A stretch of 45,879 nt of DNA from a virus, in the UHGV virus genome UHGV-0132371. The stretch is one strand, 5' to 3'. The position numbers and the translations under genes were made by a program. Of the stretch, positions 4,371 through 45,829 are shown piece after piece (within the stretch, counting starts at the first letter, position 1; every line of letters begins with the position of its first letter). The notes under the pieces are model-generated. The model was not told where the DNA came from and made no database searches. It worked only from the letters and a program-made list of their open reading frames with translations.

Positions 4371-5288
4371 TTATCGCTTGGCTTCGCCGCCGAGAGAGGT
4401 TGTTAATCCGTTAATGAGAGAGATAAGCTCGCCGGTCATCAGAACAAAGTCAGCGTCGAACCGCTGAGCCGCATCCTCACGGTCGATATCGTCGTTTTGT
4501 TCTGTAATCTCATTAGAGAACTTAAGGCGTTTGATGCTGCCGTCATCGCAAAGAACGAACTGAATGCGCTGTTGCCAGTCGATAGACAGCTTTGTAACTA
4601 CTTTGCCAGCTTCCAGATGCACATGAATTTCGTCACTGACCAGAGTCTGTTTTTTAAAGCGTCCAATACCGCCATCTTCAAGAATAGCTTTCAGTTCGGC
4701 TTCATCACCCAGGCCAAAGCCAGCAGGCGCACTACCGGAACGAACCCATTCGGTCATAGTTAGTTCGATCGGCGTTTCCATAGTCAGCGGTACCACCGGG
4801 AGAGAACCGAGAGTTTTACGAAGCAGGGCCAGTGAGTCTTCGGCACGTTTAGCGCTGGCTGCATCAACCATGATCAGACCGTCGGTGACGTTGATCCACA
4901 AACTAACAGTCGAGTTTTTGGAGAACGCCCGAGGAAGCAGGGAGTGCAACACTTCATCACGCAGCGAATCTTTCTCAGTTTTTTTGAGGCGACGCCCCTG
5001 ATCGGATTCCAGACGCGACACACGCTTGCGCAGTTCTTCAGCAATGACAGGAGATGGCAGTATTTTTTCTTCCCGGCGAATAACCAACAACACTTGATTA
5101 TTGACAGTGTGATGCAAGCGATCTGACAGCTGACCAAGTGGTGATACCCAACCGGTTTTTGCCATATCCTGGCTACCGCATGGAGTGAAGCGAAATAGTT
5201 CAAGCTGCTGTTCCAGCTCTTCCTGGTTGATGGTGAAATCGCGACTAATGCGATACACCAACATATTTTTGAAAAACGGATTGTTCAT
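4371..5288 (-). CDS. rdgC: Recombination-associated protein RdgC homolog
   Basis: 305 aa, alignable by eye along its whole length with E. coli RdgC ([11 protein letters not shown]..., [37 protein letters not shown]). Confidence 0.85.
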
Positions 5289-12479: not shown

Positions 12480-13537
12480 GAGGACTGTTTACAGCCGAGA
12501 CTGTTCCGCGCCTGGGGCTTGTGCTGTTAAAGCCAGGTAGCGATCTGATGTCTCTGTTCCAGCAGGGGCGTGTGCTGGTGGAGCCTCAGCCAAAAAGTAT
12601 GGCTGGGCTTCCGTCGGGGCTGGTCCCTGATGCGAGGCAGCCGCTGGCAGAAGATAAATCCCTCGAGGAATTCTTCACCGACGAGAGGGTTATCCGCGCC
12701 GCAGGCGGTTTATCCGCGTTGGACTCATGGTTAGAGCGCAACGTTAAGGAATGCCAGTACCCGCACGCTGACTACCACCATCGCGAGCTGGTAACAATGC
12801 GCCACCCCCCAGGGTCAATGCTGCTCTGCTGGCATTGCGATAACCAGCTGCGCGAGCAGACCACCGCGGCGCTGGCAGAACTGGCCCGGCGAAATCTCAT
12901 CAACTGGCTGATCAATTCGATCCTGTCTGCGCTTGGCTACAACACCGAGCGCGAACTATCCCTCGGTGAATTGTGCTGGTGGGCCGTTTATTCAGGCATT
13001 GCTGATGCAATCACGGAAAGGATGGCCCAGCATGCGCTTCGCTTACCGGATGAGCCGTTTTTATCCGTATATCGAGAAAGTGACATTGTGCCGATGCCCC
13101 CTGCAAAAAGCATTTTGCAGAAGAAGGCCACCCCTGCGGTCACGGCTGCGAAATTAAAGCATGGAGCAAATCAGGAAGTGGCCTATGACCAGCCAAAGGT
13201 TCTGGCTCTGCATGCGGATCCTGAATCCCCTGAATCATTCATGTTGCGTCCAAAACACCGCAGGTGGGTGAATGAGGACTATACCCGGTGGGTTAAAACC
13301 CAGCCCTGTGAAGGTTGCCGGCGGCCAGCGGATGATCCACACCATGTCATTGGTCACGGCATGGGCGGTACCGCCACTAAAGCCCACGATTTGTTCGTGA
13401 TCCCTCTGTGCAGAGAGTGTCACGACAAATTACATGCTGATGTTGCAGCGTTCGAGAAAAAACACGGTACCCAGCTGGAGCTGCTATTCCGGTTTATGAA
13501 TCGAGCGGTGGCGATCGGCGTAATAACAAAAGCGTAA
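12476..13537 (+). CDS. DUF968-type protein with C-terminal HNH-like zinc finger
   Basis: 353 aa; CEGC...HHVIGHG...CRECHDKLH motif. Start uncertain (GTG at 12476 or ATG at 12548). Confidence 0.55.
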   Translation: MRGLFTAETVPRLGLVLLKPGSDLMSLFQQGRVLVEPQPKSMAGLPSGLVPDARQPLAEDKSLEEFFTDERVIRAAGGLSALDSWLERNVKECQYPHADYHHRELVTMRHPPGSMLLCWHCDNQLREQTTAALAELARRNLINWLINSILSALGYNTERELSLGELCWWAVYSGIADAITERMAQHALRLPDEPFLSVYRESDIVPMPPAKSILQKKATPAVTAAKLKHGANQEVAYDQPKVLALHADPESPESFMLRPKHRRWVNEDYTRWVKTQPCEGCRRPADDPHHVIGHGMGGTATKAHDLFVIPLCRECHDKLHADVAAFEKKHGTQLELLFRFMNRAVAIGVITKA

Positions 13538-13558
13538 TTGTATGGAGCGCTGAGCATA

Positions 13559-14251
13559 ATGAATTTACAAGAACTGGAATTTACGCGGATTGAACTGCGC
13601 CGCGCGCTGGCGGATTTATCAGGCTCGACAAAAGGACAGCTGCAGGCGTTCAGTGAGCATCCACCAGCAGATAAGAACAAATACCCCCGGCACCATCCTG
13701 AAATCGTCATGGAGGGTGGGGAAGGTTGTGGATCCAAGGTTGTAAAAACGATGGCCACTCCACTTTATGTTCTTGAGACAAGGAGCCGTCGCCGACCTTT
13801 ACCGCCTATTAAGGATGCGGAGTTCGCTTGTTCAGCATGGCGTCGTTCGGTCAATGGTCTTGGGGAGCATTTGCAGGCATGGGTGCGGTACTGCTATGGG
13901 CATGACCTTGCTTTCCGGTACCAGAGGTTAATGTGCCAGCACGTATGGGAAGAGTTTCAGCGTCAGCATAGCGGCAAAAAAATCCAGGACCGTGTCACTA
14001 AAAAACTGGTAGGGCTTGTCTGGCTGGCGGCGCAAGAAGTTGCTGCCTCGCGTAATAACGATACCTATCAGGAGTATGCTGGTGCAGCTCTGGCGCGCAT
14101 GGTCAGCGTTGAGCGTTCCACCTGGCTCAGAGTGTATTCATGCCACTGGGCGGCTTTCAAAGCGTCGTTTACTGAGATGGACAGCCAGGCACTAAGCGAA
14201 ATTTTGTCACGGTACGAAGAGTACCAAGAACTGAAAGTGGCGGAAATGTGA
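13559..14251 (+). CDS. Q: Late-gene antiterminator Q-like protein
   Basis: Position before the lysis genes; the only ATG start is at 13559 (track begins at a TTG at 13538); family from memory. Confidence 0.55.
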   Translation: MNLQELEFTRIELRRALADLSGSTKGQLQAFSEHPPADKNKYPRHHPEIVMEGGEGCGSKVVKTMATPLYVLETRSRRRPLPPIKDAEFACSAWRRSVNGLGEHLQAWVRYCYGHDLAFRYQRLMCQHVWEEFQRQHSGKKIQDRVTKKLVGLVWLAAQEVAASRNNDTYQEYAGAALARMVSVERSTWLRVYSCHWAAFKASFTEMDSQALSEILSRYEEYQELKVAEM

Positions 14252-14281
14252 GGTAACTTTCACTAACTCCCTCAAATGGGC

Positions 14282-14345
14282 TTGCAAAATGCAACAAAAT
14301 AAGCGATATTTAAAGCTAATTTGATATGTTGCCATGAGTATATAA
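14282..14345 (+). promoter_or_regulatory. Candidate late promoter (PR'-like) and qut region
   Basis: TTGCAA then about 17 nt then GATATT downstream of Q, followed about 50 nt later by a terminator, as in lambda PR'/6S RNA. Confidence 0.35.
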
Positions 14346-14368
14346 ACCCGCCAGCGAGCGGGTTTTTC
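14346..14368 (+). terminator. Rho-independent terminator (tR'-like)
   Basis: ACCCGC-CAGCGA-GCGGGT hairpin followed by TTTTT. Confidence 0.55.
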
Positions 14369-14576
14369 ATTTTCACGTACTAAGTGGATGGGATTACCCG
14401 GCGACCATAACAACATAAAAAGATACTGTTTATACATTCATAGGAATTTGTTGTTAAGCTGCACTTACAACAAAAAAAGTCAAGAAATCTCCGAGAAACA
14501 CCACTAATCTGTGCAAAAAAGATTGCATATAACGTATGTTCAGACCATATTTAGCGCATAACTAAAGCAATCTTGA

Positions 14577-14597
14577 CCTCCACTTGGGAGGTTTTTT
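14577..14597 (+). terminator. Rho-independent terminator
   Basis: CCTCC-ACTTG-GGAGG hairpin followed by TTTTTT. Confidence 0.55.
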
Positions 14598-14679
14598 CGT
14601 ATCTATCCCTTAGTGAAATCTACATGTTGTGTGCCGAAGTTGTTTTTTTACTACATGTAGTTTGTTGGAGAGCGCAGCC

Positions 14680-14889
14680 ATGAACATAAACCAGCTTTAT
14701 GACGATTTTGGTATCACCCCCGCAGAATTTTTGCCAAACGAAACAGCAACTGATTTTGGTCGCAGAGTAATGAGTACCTCATCAGTTGGTTCTGGGCAAA
14801 AAGGTGTGATTTATTCGACAGGTTCTCACCTGGAAAATGTTGATTACAATCAACAAGGAAATGCATCGTACCAACTGTATTCATACTAA
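14680..14889 (+). CDS. Small hypothetical protein (69 aa), first gene of the cargo cassette
   Basis: GGAGAG RBS before the ATG (track ORF begins earlier at 14629); AT-rich. Confidence 0.4.
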   Translation: MNINQLYDDFGITPAEFLPNETATDFGRRVMSTSSVGSGQKGVIYSTGSHLENVDYNQQGNASYQLYSY

Positions 14890-14903
14890 CAATAAGATGA
14901 ACA

Positions 14904-15803
14904 ATGCCTAATTGGAATCATGTTATGGGCGAGGTTGCAGTCCTCGCCCAAAAAAGCCCCCTAGACACAGTAAGAAGCAAATATATCAAAGAGATGTCGC
15001 AGATGACCGGACGTAACGTCATTGCGTACTACTCGGGGTTCCTTCAGAATAGCTCGCATTTATGTACTATGTCTGATGATGATAAAAATGGATTCATGAC
15101 AGCGGTTCATGGGCTCGATGCCACGAAGGGGCTTGATCTCATTTTGCATACACCTGGTGGGGATATCGCCGCCTTAGAATCGATAGGTTATTACTTGAGA
15201 GCTAAGTTCGGTAACGATATCCGTGCTTTTGTCCCCATGATATCTATGTCAGCAGGGACTATGTTGGCTTGTTGTGCAAAAGAAATCATCATGGGGAAAC
15301 AATCAAATATCGGTCCTTTCGATCCCCAAATAGGTGGCGTGCCAGCACATGGCGTGATTGAAGAAGCGCAGAAGGCTATGCAAGATATTATTAAAAACCC
15401 TGCGACTGCTGCGTATTGGCAATTTACACTGTCTAAACTCAATCCGACGTTCATTGGTGAGTGTGAAAAGGCAATCCAATGGGCAACAACAATTGTCAGT
15501 GAATGGCTAATTACTGGTATGTTTGATGGGGATCCAGATGCCCAGCAAAAGGCTGAAGCTATTTGTTCAAGCCTGAATAACCACAGTTCAACTTTTGCTC
15601 ATGCACGTCATATTCACAGTGATAAAGCTAGCCAAATTGGTTTGAAAATCATACCGATGGAAGCAGATCAGGCATTACAAGATATTGTGTTAACGATACA
15701 TCATAGCTATATGCACACTTTTGGTGGCAGTACAGCAGCCAAGATTATCGAGAACCATGAGGATGGCCGAAGAGTCTGGCATGTCCCTCCTGGAAACGCG
15801 TAA
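14904..15803 (+). CDS. S49/SDH-family ClpP-fold serine peptidase (second copy besides gpC)
   Basis: 299 aa with LILHTPGGDI and MISMSAGTMLACCA motifs typical of ClpP/SppA-fold peptidases; AT-rich; bracketed by terminators. Confidence 0.6.
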   Translation: MPNWNHVMGEVAVLAQKSPLDTVRSKYIKEMSQMTGRNVIAYYSGFLQNSSHLCTMSDDDKNGFMTAVHGLDATKGLDLILHTPGGDIAALESIGYYLRAKFGNDIRAFVPMISMSAGTMLACCAKEIIMGKQSNIGPFDPQIGGVPAHGVIEEAQKAMQDIIKNPATAAYWQFTLSKLNPTFIGECEKAIQWATTIVSEWLITGMFDGDPDAQQKAEAICSSLNNHSSTFAHARHIHSDKASQIGLKIIPMEADQALQDIVLTIHHSYMHTFGGSTAAKIIENHEDGRRVWHVPPGNA

Positions 15804-15824
15804 ATTTCAGATTTTATTAAAAAT

Positions 15825-15852
15825 GCCCTGACCTGAAAATCAGGGCTTTTTT
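15825..15852 (+). terminator. Rho-independent terminator
   Basis: GCCCTGA...TCAGGGC hairpin followed by TTTTTT. Confidence 0.6.
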
Positions 15853-16021
15853 ACGCCTTCGTTCCTTCAATATGGAGGAGTTTTGCTGTGGAATGGGCGG
15901 CTGGTGGGTGTTGTAGCACCCGACCAACCATCAGCTCATGCTTACAGGTCACAAGCTAACCAAGGCCCATTGCTTTAGCGCAAAAGCAAAGAGAGCCTAT
16001 CAGAGTTACGCTTATTGATCT

Positions 16022-17074
16022 ATGAAAAATACTGTAAATATAAACAGTGTTGAGTTAGTCAACGCTGATAGCCTGCAATACATCGCCACTCTCCCTGATA
16101 ACTCCATTGACCTGATAGTCACGGATCCGCCGTACTTCAAAGTGAAACCAAACGGCTGGGACAACCAATGGAAAGGGGATGATGATTATCTTCGATGGCT
16201 TGATATGTACCTCGCACAATTCTGGCGAGTGCTTAAACCTGCCGGCAGTCTTTATCTTTTCTCCGGTCACCGCCTGTCGGCAGACATTGAGATCATGATG
16301 CGTGAGCGGTTCAACGTCCTGAACCACATCATCTGGGCTAAACCGTCTGGCCGCTGGAATGGCTGTAATAAAGAGAGCCTTCGCTCTTACTTCCCTGCAA
16401 CAGAGCGCATCCTGTTCGCTGAGCATTACCAGGGGCCGTATAAACCAAAGAGCGACGGGTACGCTGAGAAGGGAAGCGAGCTGAAGCAGCATGTAATGAC
16501 TCCCCTAATTTCTTATTTCCGGGATGCACGTGAAGCGCTTGGCATATCCTCAAAACAAATAGCCGATGCGACTGGAAAGAAGAACATGGTGTCTCACTGG
16601 TTCAGCGGTAGCCAGTGGCAATTACCGAATGAATCCGACTACCGGAAACTTCAATCCCTTTTCACGCAGGTAGCCATCGAAAAGCACCAGAACGGCGAAC
16701 TGGCAACACCACACCACCAGCTGGTGGCCCTGTGGCATTCGTTAAATCGCAAGTATTCAGAGCTGCTCGAAGAGTACAAATCGCTTCGGCGGCATTTCTC
16801 TGTTTCCGTATCCGTTCCTTATACCGACGTCTGGACACATAAACCCGTTCAGTTTTACCCAGGTAAACACCCATGCGAAAAACCCGCTGACATGTTGCGG
16901 CAGATCATCAACGCCAGCAGTAAGCCTGGTGATGTGGTGGCTGATTTCTTTATGGGGTCCGGTTCGACCGTGAAAATCGCGCTGGAACTTGGCCGCCAGG
17001 CTATCGGCGTTGAACTCGAGGAAGACAGGTTTAGCCAGACGGTGGAGGAAATAAGGGCGTTAACAGGGGAGTAA
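16022..17074 (+). CDS. Orphan DNA methyltransferase (beta-class N6-adenine/N4-cytosine; DPPY before FxGxG)
   Basis: 350 aa with TDPPY near the N-terminus and DFFMGSGST near the C-terminus; no adjacent restriction endonuclease. Confidence 0.8.
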   Translation: MKNTVNINSVELVNADSLQYIATLPDNSIDLIVTDPPYFKVKPNGWDNQWKGDDDYLRWLDMYLAQFWRVLKPAGSLYLFSGHRLSADIEIMMRERFNVLNHIIWAKPSGRWNGCNKESLRSYFPATERILFAEHYQGPYKPKSDGYAEKGSELKQHVMTPLISYFRDAREALGISSKQIADATGKKNMVSHWFSGSQWQLPNESDYRKLQSLFTQVAIEKHQNGELATPHHQLVALWHSLNRKYSELLEEYKSLRRHFSVSVSVPYTDVWTHKPVQFYPGKHPCEKPADMLRQIINASSKPGDVVADFFMGSGSTVKIALELGRQAIGVELEEDRFSQTVEEIRALTGE

Positions 17075-17142
17075 ACGTGAGGTCGCTCAAGCGGCCTTTT
17101 TTATTACCTCAATAACACCCGCACACAGCGAGGTGAGAGACC

Positions 17143-17445
17143 ATGAAAATGAATGATTCAGGGAACATTTTCACGCAGTTCTTCGCGTGGGTAGCAGCTC
17201 TGGCGTCAGCCATTGGTTTTACCACTCAGGATATGGTGTTCATGTTCTTTGGCGCCGCTGGTCTGCTTATCTCGTTTGCCTCCTATGTCAATGGTCGCGT
17301 GGATGCCCACCGCAGGCGTAGAGAGGACGAAAAGCGAACAAAAATGGTTAATGACTACCTGAAAGGCGTTGGTGATAAACCCCTTCACGAACGTCCTGCG
17401 GCTGCAAGCGTGGTCGTTGAGGCATTACAAAAGGAAGGTGAGTGA
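17143..17445 (+). CDS. Holin (two-TMD, pinholin-like)
   Basis: 100 aa, two hydrophobic helices and a charged C-terminus; immediately upstream of a SAR endolysin; GAGGTGAGAG RBS. Confidence 0.6.
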   Translation: MKMNDSGNIFTQFFAWVAALASAIGFTTQDMVFMFFGAAGLLISFASYVNGRVDAHRRRREDEKRTKMVNDYLKGVGDKPLHERPAAASVVVEALQKEGE

Positions 17446-17981
17446 TGGGATCCAGAGCAAAATTAAGCGCTGCTGTTCTGGGGCTGGTACTTGCTGGTGC
17501 GCCAGCATCCGTCATTCTCGATCAGTTTCTGAATGAGAAAGAGGGAAACAGCCTTACAGCGTACAAAGATGGCAGCGGCATCTGGACGATTTGCCGGGGA
17601 GCTACCACGGTTGACGGCAAGCCTGTTAACCCAGGTATGAGGCTATCGCCAGAGAAATGTAATCAGGTGAACGCCAGCGAGCTGAACAAGGCGCTGGCTT
17701 GGGTCGACCGCAATATCCAGGTACCACTGACCGAACCTCAGAAAGCGGGGATTGCCTCATTCTGCCCGTACAACATTGGTCCTGGTAAATGCTTTCCTTC
17801 GACCTTTTATAAACGCATCAACGCCGGTGATCGTAAAGGGGCGTGTGAAGCAATCCGCTGGTGGATCAAAGATGGTGGCCGTGATTGTCGATTAACCAAA
17901 GGCCAGAAGAACGGCTGCTATGGTCAGGTCGAGCGACGGGACCAGGAAAGCGCGCTGGTGTGCTGGGGGATAGAACAGTGA
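17445..17981 (+). CDS. SAR endolysin (T4-lysozyme-like muramidase with N-terminal signal-anchor-release domain)
   Basis: N-terminal hydrophobic LSAAVLGLVLAGAPASVIL followed by the E-x8-D-x5-T catalytic triad. Confidence 0.8.
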   Translation: MGSRAKLSAAVLGLVLAGAPASVILDQFLNEKEGNSLTAYKDGSGIWTICRGATTVDGKPVNPGMRLSPEKCNQVNASELNKALAWVDRNIQVPLTEPQKAGIASFCPYNIGPGKCFPSTFYKRINAGDRKGACEAIRWWIKDGGRDCRLTKGQKNGCYGQVERRDQESALVCWGIEQ

Positions 17982-18493
17982 AATTTAATCTCTTCGCGGT
18001 CCTGGTTGTAGTCATTGCAGGTCTGTCAGTCGCCCTCGTCAAAAGTTGCTCAAACGCCAGTAGCCTACAGAGCGATAACGACGTTCTGCGAAGTGACAAC
18101 TCTATGCAGGGGCAGGTGATCGCCACCCAGGCATTCAACTTCAATCGATTCAATCAGGTTGCAGAACATGCCAACAGGCTTAACTCCCTGATCGACACCA
18201 GCACCGAAGAAACCGTAATCGAATACCGGGAGATTCTCCGCCGTGAAAAAACCTGTGATCTGCCTGTTCCTGCTGACATTGCTGGTGGGCTGCTCGAATA
18301 CGCGTACCGTTTACGTTCCAGCGCAATGCACGCCGATACCGACGGAATTAACGCAGCCGATGATAGTACCGCTGCCGCCGGCTCAATAACGTACTGCCAG
18401 GCTGTGCTCTGGATTAAGCCGCTGCTGGCCGTGATTGAAAAGGGCAATAACAATTTCGCTGGAATTCGTCAAATAGAGAGCGAGCGTCAATAG
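17978..18493 (+). CDS. Rz-like inner-membrane spanin
   Basis: GTG start overlapping the endolysin stop; N-terminal TMD then coiled coil; contains an embedded lipoprotein ORF. Confidence 0.6.
   Translation: MKFNLFAVLVVVIAGLSVALVKSCSNASSLQSDNDVLRSDNSMQGQVIATQAFNFNRFNQVAEHANRLNSLIDTSTEETVIEYREILRREKTCDLPVPADIAGGLLEYAYRLRSSAMHADTDGINAADDSTAAAGSITYCQAVLWIKPLLAVIEKGNNNFAGIRQIESERQ
18243..18389 (+). CDS. Rz1-like outer-membrane spanin lipoprotein, embedded in Rz in the +1 frame
   Basis: 48 aa with lipobox LLVGC and proline-rich C-terminus PLPPAQ; GTG start; not in the ORF track. Confidence 0.55.
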   Translation: MKKPVICLFLLTLLVGCSNTRTVYVPAQCTPIPTELTQPMIVPLPPAQ

Positions 18494-18494
18494 T

Positions 18495-18545
18495 CTTTAT
18501 CCCTAGCAAGGGATAAAGCAACCATTATCCCCGCTAAGGGATAGG
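18495..18545. repeat. Two tandem palindromes (TATCCC...GGGATA class)
   Basis: CTTTATCCCT-AGCA-AGGGATAAAG (perfect 10 bp arms) then TTATCCCCGCTAAGGGATA, right after the Rz stop. Confidence 0.5.
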
Positions 18546-18600
18546 CGTTACAGCAGACACTCACCTAATGCCTGTTGCCATTCAGCCAAGGAGCCAGCCT

Positions 18601-44731: not shown

Positions 44732-45829
44732 TCAAGAGATCTTATTTCTGCTCCTTTGGAGCTCTTCAAAACGATTATGTAAAGATTTTGGATACAGTTC
44801 GGTATATACCTGCCATAGCACGTTTAATGAACGATGCCCTGTAACCTGGGCTACTTCCTCAATACTAAAACCAGCCTCAAATAAGCGACTTGCCCCTTCT
44901 CTACGCAAATCATGGTATCGCAGATCCTTAATACCTAATTTGCTTCTTACCCTCTGAAATCCCGCAGTAACAGAAGTGCTGTTATATGGAAAAATGAATT
45001 CCGATTTTTGGGGCTGTCGTTGGACGATATCCCAGGCTTCCCCAAGCAAGGCTACTTTCATGTGGTTGCCTTCCTTTTTGCGTGGATCTTTCCTGTCTCT
45101 TACGAGTATAGATTTTTGTTCCTGGTCGAGATCTTCCCATCGTAACCGGCATACTTCTCCGATTCGCATACAGGACCACACAGAAAATTTGAGGATATCA
45201 ACGAACGGAATTTTTGAGCATTTATGAGTAGATCGTTGTTGAAGGCCTTCAATGAGCATGTCCAGTTCATCAGATGCTGGTCTACGATTACGACGGTTTG
45301 ATTTACCAATTAAACCAAGTTTAAGTAGATATGGACGAGCGGCTTTTGCTGGGTTTGATGTGTAATTAATTCCATATACAGGTTTGGCAGCATCCAGAAC
45401 ACTGCCAAGATAACTAACATCGTGGCTAACTGTAGCTGGACCTGCACCAGCGTTGTTTCTTAGCCTGCAATGTTCAATTACGTCATTTTCTGTCAGTTCA
45501 GATAGTTTGATCGCGGAGATGTCACTATCCATAAGCAGTTCCAGCACATATCTTTTAGTACGGCCTGCTTTACCTCCGGCATTTGGGTCATTTAAATATT
45601 TGTGTAGTAAGTCACGGACTGTAAGTCCGTCAACTGCATTTGATGATGGAATGCCATATAGATCTAATTCCATCACTTTCTGTGTGCCCCATGTTTTGGC
45701 ATGAGCATGTTTAGGGAATGTTTTGCTTTCCCTGTAAGTGATAACACCTTTTTCTTTGATAATCACATTACAGCGATAGCGTGGTGTGCCATCGGATTTT
45801 AGTCGTTTCTCTATGTTATAGTACGCCAT
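44732..45829 (-). CDS. int: Tyrosine site-specific integrase
   Basis: 365 aa; C-terminal catalytic motifs (HDLRREGASRL, VTGHRSL, YTELY); GAGG RBS. Confidence 0.85.
   Translation of the reverse strand: MAYYNIEKRLKSDGTPRYRCNVIIKEKGVITYRESKTFPKHAHAKTWGTQKVMELDLYGIPSSNAVDGLTVRDLLHKYLNDPNAGGKAGRTKRYVLELLMDSDISAIKLSELTENDVIEHCRLRNNAGAGPATVSHDVSYLGSVLDAAKPVYGINYTSNPAKAARPYLLKLGLIGKSNRRNRRPASDELDMLIEGLQQRSTHKCSKIPFVDILKFSVWSCMRIGEVCRLRWEDLDQEQKSILVRDRKDPRKKEGNHMKVALLGEAWDIVQRQPQKSEFIFPYNSTSVTAGFQRVRSKLGIKDLRYHDLRREGASRLFEAGFSIEEVAQVTGHRSLNVLWQVYTELYPKSLHNRFEELQRSRNKIS

Follow-up and report, generated by a model that had tools for sequence, protein, structure and literature searches.

A prophage-borne adenine methyltransferase gene of the M.EcoGII family and the conserved, structured leader that precedes its start codon

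The virus genome UHGV-0132371 (45,879 nt; this whole stretch is referred to as the window) is organised as a lambdoid prophage, with a CI-like S24 repressor, Cro-like and CII-like proteins, a replication protein, RusA, Ant, a DUF968 protein and the antiterminator Q, followed by the lysis genes and then by terminase, portal, head and tail genes. Between Q and the lysis genes lies an open reading frame (ORF) for a protein of 350 residues (16022–17074, + strand, ATG to TAA), which, to judge from its sequence, encodes a beta-class N6-adenine methyltransferase of the M.EcoGII/M.EcoGI family. Its start codon is fused to a conserved and structured, non-coding leader of about 135 nt (15889–16021, + strand). 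The family is large and already characterised, and the gene is an ordinary representative of it; within the finding, only the leader may be new.

In the encoded protein the catalytic loop of motif IV, DPPY (residues 35–38; 16124–16135, + strand), precedes the S-adenosylmethionine (SAM) binding loop of motif I, FMGSG (residues 310–314; 16949–16963, + strand). Among 51 homologs DPPY is invariant, as are F310, G312, S313 and G314. This order is that of a beta-class amino-methyltransferase, as a preliminary description of the window had stated, and the Pfam profile N6_N4_Mtase (PF01555) matches residues 29–340 with a score well outside chance (E = 1.2e-42, 146.8 bits against a cutoff of 26.7). Likewise, PHROG 67 and two half-length PHROGs match the protein, each with E < 1e-90. 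The spacing of the two motifs had been given in that description as about 200 residues; it is in fact 271 residues, with roughly 90 beyond the 221-position Pfam model. The target-recognition domain (TRD) of beta-class enzymes sits between the two motif blocks, and a large middle segment is therefore to be expected. In the window protein this region (residues 135–259; 16424–16798, + strand) comprises a long charged helical linker joined to a four-helix TRD (about residues 160–237), and together they split a catalytic core with the Rossmann-type methyltransferase fold common to the solved beta-class enzymes. The helix-turn-helix (HTH) is found within the TRD at about residues 167–197 (16520–16612, + strand), where the HTH_3 profile matches weakly (E = 9.8e-4, under the Pfam cutoff). 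An AlphaFold model, built from the 51 homologs as a shallow alignment of 77–97% identity, is of moderate quality overall (average pLDDT, the predicted local distance difference test score, of 71; predicted template modelling score, pTM, of 0.54), with values below 50 for residues 106–144 and 256–286. The means of 10-residue blocks are 79–93 over residues 151–250, and helices are modelled at residues 147–173, 177–184, 189–193, 204–223 and 238–255. As the TRD of M.EcoGII has already been described as a four-helix bundle with an HTH, the HTH-like segment noticed previously is real, whereas its interpretation as an insertion is wrong: it is the normal TRD of the family.

Comparison with other beta-class enzymes sets the protein apart in this middle region. 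Solved methyltransferases align with residues 9–113 and 281–348 only, residues 114–280 being non-homologous, and the middle region has no sequence relative with a solved structure. The NCBIfam equivalog for YhdJ (NF008572) gives 109.1 bits in two separate stretches against a cutoff of 292, and that for CcrM (NF050803) gives 70.5 bits against a cutoff of 830; membership of the YhdJ, CcrM or PRK13699 equivalogs was rejected, the scores lying far under the cutoffs in each case. The enzymes of the YhdJ/M.BceJIV family (NF008572; PDB 8URK), which are chromosomal and site-specific, match the window protein in the two terminal segments alone, and their middle 170 residues (linker and TRD) are unrelated to its own.

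A search of 5.8 billion proteins returned 3209 matches; the best 120 of these are all 72–98% identical to the window protein, are mostly 348–358 residues long and come from Escherichia, Enterobacter, Citrobacter, Salmonella, Klebsiella, Cronobacter and other genera. At the DNA level, a relative is present in 2731 of 5426 complete E. coli genomes, at up to eight places per genome, and no more than 17 records reach 95–99% identity. E. coli phage Flotzy, deposited as a complete genome, carries a 96%-identical gene. Genes of 78–94% identity were also seen in records named as a Geobacteraceae metagenome-assembled genome, Vagococcus, Chryseobacterium and Collinsella (loci L006, L018, L031 and L055); these are probably contamination or mis-binned contigs and not the true host range. 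The gene is under strong purifying selection, with a ratio of nonsynonymous to synonymous substitution rates (dN/dS) of 0.04–0.12 against six homologs, saturated synonymous sites (dS > 1.8 against most homologs) and a full-length, intact ORF in 71 of 73 genome loci.

M.EcoGII (GenBank EGT69837.1) and M.EcoGI are borne by prophages of E. coli O104:H4 C227-11 and, like the window gene, are orphans with the same beta-class motif order. M.EcoGII and the window protein are of near-equal length (349 and 350 residues), and 272 of 348 residues (78%) are identical over the full length, with two one-residue gaps. The M.EcoGII sequence was read by machine from a table in PDF form (Suppl. Table S1, PMC11551740) and has a few obvious reading errors (NHHIWA for NHIIWA; GRRRAIG), and the true identity is thus probably slightly above 78%. 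The N-terminal core is 84% identical, the TRD (residues 160–237) 79%, the linkers 68–72% and the C-terminal core 71%; the 76 differing positions include 16 in the TRD. The four-helix HTH recognition domain is shared, as is the charged interdomain linker, which aligns without gaps. Among reconstructed ancestors of the family, identity to the window protein is 84.5% for Anc289, 83.3% for Anc291 and 73.6% for Anc284/SUPREM; the two ancestors on the M.EcoGII lineage, Anc289 and Anc291, are thus nearer to the protein than either M.EcoGII or the deeper Anc284. As DNA methyltransferases, Anc291 and Anc289 are both somewhat more active than M.EcoGII, and no sequence motif was seen on RNA for M.EcoGII, Anc291 or SUPREM (PMC11551740). 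M.EcoGII is a non-specific adenine methyltransferase acting in any context (PMC5778455), which modifies roughly 90% of the adenines in vitro and roughly 85% in vivo and eluted as a dimer in size-exclusion chromatography (PMC11551740). The residues corresponding to the dimer interface (97–110 and 116–140) are largely invariant among the 51 homologs. By homology to M.EcoGII, the specificity to be expected of the window protein is probably any A. Target specificity, treated in the preliminary description as an open unknown, is hence predictable from the 78% identity to M.EcoGII (79% in the TRD). In addition, that description took the lack of a methylation motif gained on expression as grounds for refutation; as an any-A enzyme would yield diffuse N6-methyladenine (m6A) and no motif, such an outcome would mislead.

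A different specificity would follow if the diverged HTH domain read a short motif, making the protein a site-specific or relaxed-specificity adenine methyltransferase. We regard this as unlikely, although 21% of the TRD residues differ from those of M.EcoGII and the database label of the protein is 'site-specific DNA-methyltransferase'; the label is a family name assigned automatically. Among enzymes of confirmed site specificity, the closest relative is the Type II methyltransferase M.PflMI (CCANNNNNTGG), also of the beta class, which belongs to a restriction–modification (R-M) system and is named for the PflMI R-M specificity; no partner nuclease was found for the window gene with Pfam or PADLOC. 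Its overall predicted structure, recognition domain included, is similar, but M.PflMI is only about 27% identical to M.EcoGII and is without the charged interdomain linker (PMC11551740) that the window protein retains. Adenine methyltransferases of relaxed specificity do exist, as exemplified by M.HaeV (BA) and M.CsaII (AB) (PMC5778455). Still, the window protein is closest to Anc291 and Anc289, and M.EcoGII, Anc291 and SUPREM have proved non-site-specific where tested. An enzyme of any-A specificity remains the reading that we prefer.

The homology to distant relatives runs about 135 nt upstream past the start codon of the methyltransferase gene. Over 48 loci from many genera the mean column identity of this leader is 80–83%, which is conservation far beyond that of the saturated synonymous sites of the gene itself, and invariant blocks are found at AATGGGCG, TCAC, GAG..TA and ATC.ATG. 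The consensus structure consists of a closing stem (UGGGC/GCCUA), a 12-bp hairpin P1, a hairpin P2 with a 4-bp stem and a hairpin P3, with the 3′ terminal ~25 nt and the ATG unpaired. It was derived by RNAalifold and inspection; a hand-drawn register replaced the P3 and the inner P1 proposed by RNAalifold and was then tested. In the drawn structure 93.7% of cells pair, as compared to at most 47.5% with the partners slid, and changes on both sides occur in 13 pairs as compared to 5.2 in shuffled alignments, none of 500 shuffles scoring as high. Nine of the 12 pairs in P1 covary, and the outer pair of P2 is found as CG (24), AU (9), UA (8) and UG (4). The closing stem and P3 are too invariant for proof by covariation, and the 5′ UGGGC may have an alternative partner in GCCCA at columns 102–106 of alignment A5. 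When the window leader is folded alone, P1 and P3 are kept and the consensus closing stem is lost (z = −2.6).

A covariance model of the leader (R1) has a single match in the window (15889–16024, 155 bits) and places the leader directly before the methyltransferase gene in 12 further loci (67–165 bits). On five Photorhabdus loci the matches are weak (19–25 bits), and on the Xenorhabdus loci the model gave no match. Similarly, a 21-nt leader string in viral contigs is followed by a methyltransferase start 129–132 nt downstream at 110 of 114 testable occurrences. The remaining four (L102, L140, L166 and L185) contain the first ~50 nt, that is P1, and then unrelated AT-rich sequence with no methyltransferase, which suggests a recombination breakpoint inside the leader. 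A search of Rfam over 13400–18600 at E ≤ 1 gave no match to the leader, the sole sub-threshold hit being Thr_leader on the terminator at 15804–15855. No literature was found for the leader sequence strings, and a description outside the searchable literature is possible. No Shine-Dalgarno sequence is evident before the methyltransferase ATG. Immediately 5′ of the start codon lies a GATC, the site of Dam (16015–16024, TGATCTATG), which is kept in nearly all aligned loci.

P1 also contains a mini-ORF (15894–15917, + strand; ATG GGC GGC TGG TGG GTG TTG TAG, MGGWWVL), whose two adjacent Trp codons are reminiscent of an attenuator leader peptide. A coding role was rejected, as neither frame nor stop is conserved in the loci in which the arms of P1 have changed in a compensatory manner.

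The region upstream of the leader starts with the Q-type late-gene antiterminator (13538–14251, + strand; Pfam Phage_antiter_Q, E = 1.8e-39; PHROG 304, E = 2e-71). It is followed by a non-coding block (14254–14373, + strand), a candidate late promoter/tR′ unit, which is 94% identical to the stretch right after Q in E. coli ECONIH4 and ends in a terminator-like hairpin (14344–14365) with a T-run. A putative late promoter, TTGCAA-17-GATATT (14282–14310), was read by eye; it agrees with the consensus at 8 of 12 positions and lies under the scan threshold. The terminator scan detected a second hairpin (14575–14593, + strand), a third, bidirectional one (15825–15846, both strands), and a fourth, CCTTCAATATGGAGG with a T-run (15861–15885, + strand), so that four + strand terminator-like hairpins separate Q from the methyltransferase gene. 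The fourth accompanies the methyltransferase module, almost every aligned locus having an equivalent hairpin and T-run immediately 5′ of the leader. The published distance from PR′ to tR′ in phages encoding Shiga toxin (Stx) is 258 nt (PMC7547250), and from this we infer that the pre-leader hairpin of typical E. coli relatives is at about the position expected for tR′. No sigma-70-like promoter was found by the scan on the + strand directly 5′ of the methyltransferase gene. Downstream of the gene, a further terminator-like hairpin with a T-run (17079–17098, + strand) stands before the holin gene, and the lysis genes too would consequently need an antiterminated polymerase.

In four E. coli loci (L002–L005, at about 4647–4860) a 'hypothetical protein' of about 65 residues is annotated between Q and the methyltransferase and ends at the hairpin and T-run. 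This ORF may represent the region of an StxS-type short late RNA (PR′ to tR′) and not a gene; the window is without it and retains the hairpin.

Between the second and third hairpins of the window lies an accessory gene pair (14680–15803, + strand), made up of an ORF of 69 residues (14680–14889) and a 299-residue, SDH-type ClpP-like serine protease (14904–15803; Pfam SDH_protease, E = 2.4e-18). The pair, which is closed by the bidirectional hairpin, matches PHROGs 25714 and 11747, both of unknown function, and gave no match in PADLOC. At the same position ECONIH4 has two different, unrelated hypothetical genes, and other relatives have different genes or none. The inserted pair lies outside the methyltransferase module. 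The unrelated genes of ECONIH4 suggest that accessory genes are exchanged at this site.

On the other side, the lysis cassette (17143–18493, + strand) comprises a holin (17143–17445, PHROG 1350), an endolysin (17442–17981, PHROG 7, also supported by Pfam Phage_lysozyme) and an Rz-like spanin within 17885–18493 (PHROG 214), in agreement with the placement of the gene upstream of the lysis genes in the preliminary description. Its further statement that no restriction partner lies nearby also holds: no restriction enzyme was detected by Pfam in 20 neighbouring ORFs or by PADLOC in seven. The neighbours are Q, the ClpP-like protease, holin, endolysin and spanin, and no cognate endonuclease of a Type II R-M system was found to adjoin the gene. 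A PstI-type R-M pair was seen upstream of the gene in only one of 71 related loci.

These loci, which are one-genome-per-species contigs ranging from Enterobacter to Yersinia, Providencia, Xenorhabdus and Photorhabdus, allowed the position of the gene to be surveyed. Among the two nearest upstream ORFs, 53 matches were to Q-type or DUF1133 families (PF06530, 22; DUF1133, 15; PF06323, 10; PF03589, 6), and the two nearest downstream ORFs gave 47 matches to holin families and 35 of lysozyme type. The arrangement Q–methyltransferase–lysis genes is seen in dozens of species, and also in E. coli O157:H7 and in a stx2b phage. The homologs of M.EcoGII and M.EcoGI lie in this late region of E. coli prophages, Stx phages included. 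Annotated E. coli genomes have Q or, in its place, a DUF1133 protein, then a small ORF, the methyltransferase, tRNA genes and accessory genes, holin and lysozyme; tRNA-Ile/Arg genes stand between methyltransferase and holin, and strain 2012EL-2448 (L005) carries its stx2b genes after the tRNAs and before the holin. Phage Flotzy has the order Q, hypothetical gene, methyltransferase, holin, endolysin, spanin. The window copy differs in standing behind the inserted protease pair and in having the holin directly next, in place of tRNA or stx genes. Between methyltransferase and holin, Tad2-like anti-defence genes occur in six loci and Acb2/Tad1 in one, and toxin–antitoxin genes (ParE-like, HicA/HicB) in some. 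Throughout the Enterobacterales the methyltransferase is the first conserved gene after Q and the terminator or terminators, ahead of the lysis genes, and the head of the late operon looks like a hotspot for anti-defence and other accessory genes.

In combination, these observations make it likely that the gene encodes an orphan, phage-borne N6-adenine methyltransferase of the M.EcoGII family that places a blanket of m6A on progeny DNA as a broad anti-restriction measure. By analogy with M.EcoGII, the enzyme, probably a homodimer, would transfer methyl groups from SAM to adenines in essentially any context, and possibly to RNA as well. In the lysogen, transcripts begun at the late promoter would halt at the terminators at 14344–14365, 14575–14593, 15825–15846 and 15861–15885, leaving the gene off, which would fit the reported toxicity of M.EcoGII, an enzyme silent in the lysogen and harmful once expressed (PMC5778455, PMC12707154). 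After induction, RNA polymerase modified by Q would pass the terminators, and the enzyme would be made alongside the late proteins. Replicating and packaged phage DNA would become heavily m6A-modified before packaging, and the progeny would resist m6A-blocked restriction enzymes irrespective of their recognition site. Anti-restriction is the function proposed for the family in the literature (PMC5778455, PMC12707154), and the strategy of acquiring a protective modification has been reviewed (PMC12707154). An anti-restriction methylase expressed late was already envisaged in the preliminary description; late expression is backed by the late-gene position and the family-wide gene order, the function being the proposal of the literature.

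Several points weigh against this interpretation. An identity of 78% is no proof of the same non-specificity, with 16 of 78 TRD residues differing, and the non-specificity of the ancestors was shown on RNA, their activity on DNA being measured as bulk methyl transfer (PMC11551740). Protection of a phage by M.EcoGII-type enzymes in a real infection has been proposed, not demonstrated, in the literature found. Heavy m6A modification exposes DNA to methyl-adenine-dependent (Type IV) nucleases (PMC11037411), and the net benefit of methylation is therefore host-dependent. The late promoter match is weak, at 8 of 12 positions, the inserted protease pair could bring its own promoter and hence some read-through, and the AlphaFold model is only moderate (mean pLDDT 71, pTM 0.54).

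The relevant substrate might instead be RNA or host DNA, with the enzyme serving host takeover or the control of lytic gene expression. M.EcoGII is toxic to cells and acts on RNA and DNA:RNA hybrids (PMC5778455), relatives can be strong RNA methyltransferases (PMC11551740), and the structured RNA leader of the gene could itself be substrate or sensor. Conversely, M.EcoGII is about 90-fold faster on DNA than on RNA (V0 11.12 versus 0.12; Suppl. Table S3, PMC11551740), known anti-defence genes adjoin the gene in several loci, and late timing suits the marking of DNA just ahead of packaging. As an account of the gene in its own right this seems to us very unlikely, and it is in any case compatible with, and not exclusive of, the blanket methylation of phage DNA. 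It is highly improbable that the gene has no function in the current prophage, as a silent passenger or as a remnant in decay: many lambdoid prophages are cryptic, and M.EcoGI and M.EcoGII are unexpressed in their native strain under normal growth (PMC5778455), but the ORF is intact with all catalytic motifs invariant, dN/dS is 0.04–0.12, the lambdoid gene set of the window looks complete, with genes for repressor, replication, Q, lysis, terminase, portal, tail and integrase, and the Flotzy genome record carries the 96%-identical gene.

Marking of phage DNA by a blanket adenine methyltransferase has counterparts built on the same logic, in which a modification made during lytic growth shields the DNA against many restriction systems: Mom of phage Mu, the multispecific methyltransferases of temperate Bacillus phages, and Dam of T4 and P1. 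The proteins and their chemistry are unrelated, or only distantly related, to the window enzyme. Mom yields acetamido-adenine, the Bacillus enzymes methylate cytosine at C5 and carry several recognition domains, and Dam is an alpha-class enzyme specific for GATC. Toxicity and silence in lysogens are features that Mom shares with M.EcoGII (PMC12707154).

The role of the leader is a more tentative matter. Our guess is that it adds a second, post-transcriptional control, acting on translation or on mRNA stability. We think it possible, with somewhat less than even confidence, that it represents an undescribed class of cis-acting structured RNA which gates a toxic, non-specific methyltransferase. 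The route might be translation initiation without a Shine-Dalgarno sequence, or mRNA stability or processing just past tR′, and the leader could conceivably sense a ligand, such as SAM or S-adenosylhomocysteine (SAH), or the enzyme itself. Tight control of a dangerous enzyme at more than one level is suggested by the fused leader in combination with the family-wide location at the head of the late operon, which in Stx phages is just before stx. Should the leader turn out to act as a regulatory RNA, it would count as a new element, widespread in Enterobacterales prophages, and it could provide a control handle for M.EcoGII-type enzymes, which are widely used in chromatin footprinting.

The gene itself offers little that is new, being one more member of a family that about half of the complete E. 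coli genomes carry. Its correct annotation is probably that of a blanket adenine methyltransferase and not 'site-specific'. When methylomes are read, diffuse m6A would be expected, and the apt read-out is the fraction of adenines modified. The DNA of the induced phage may cross many restriction barriers, yet become a target of m6A-dependent nucleases.

No further methyltransferase was found among the window ORFs tested (ECONIH4 has two more), and tRNA genes, such as those beside the gene in Stx phages, were not found in the window. The early-left region contains a gene for an RdgC-family protein (4371–5288, − strand). The tyrosine integrase gene (44732–45829, − strand) lies at the right end of the window, past the tail genes, and does not adjoin the early region.

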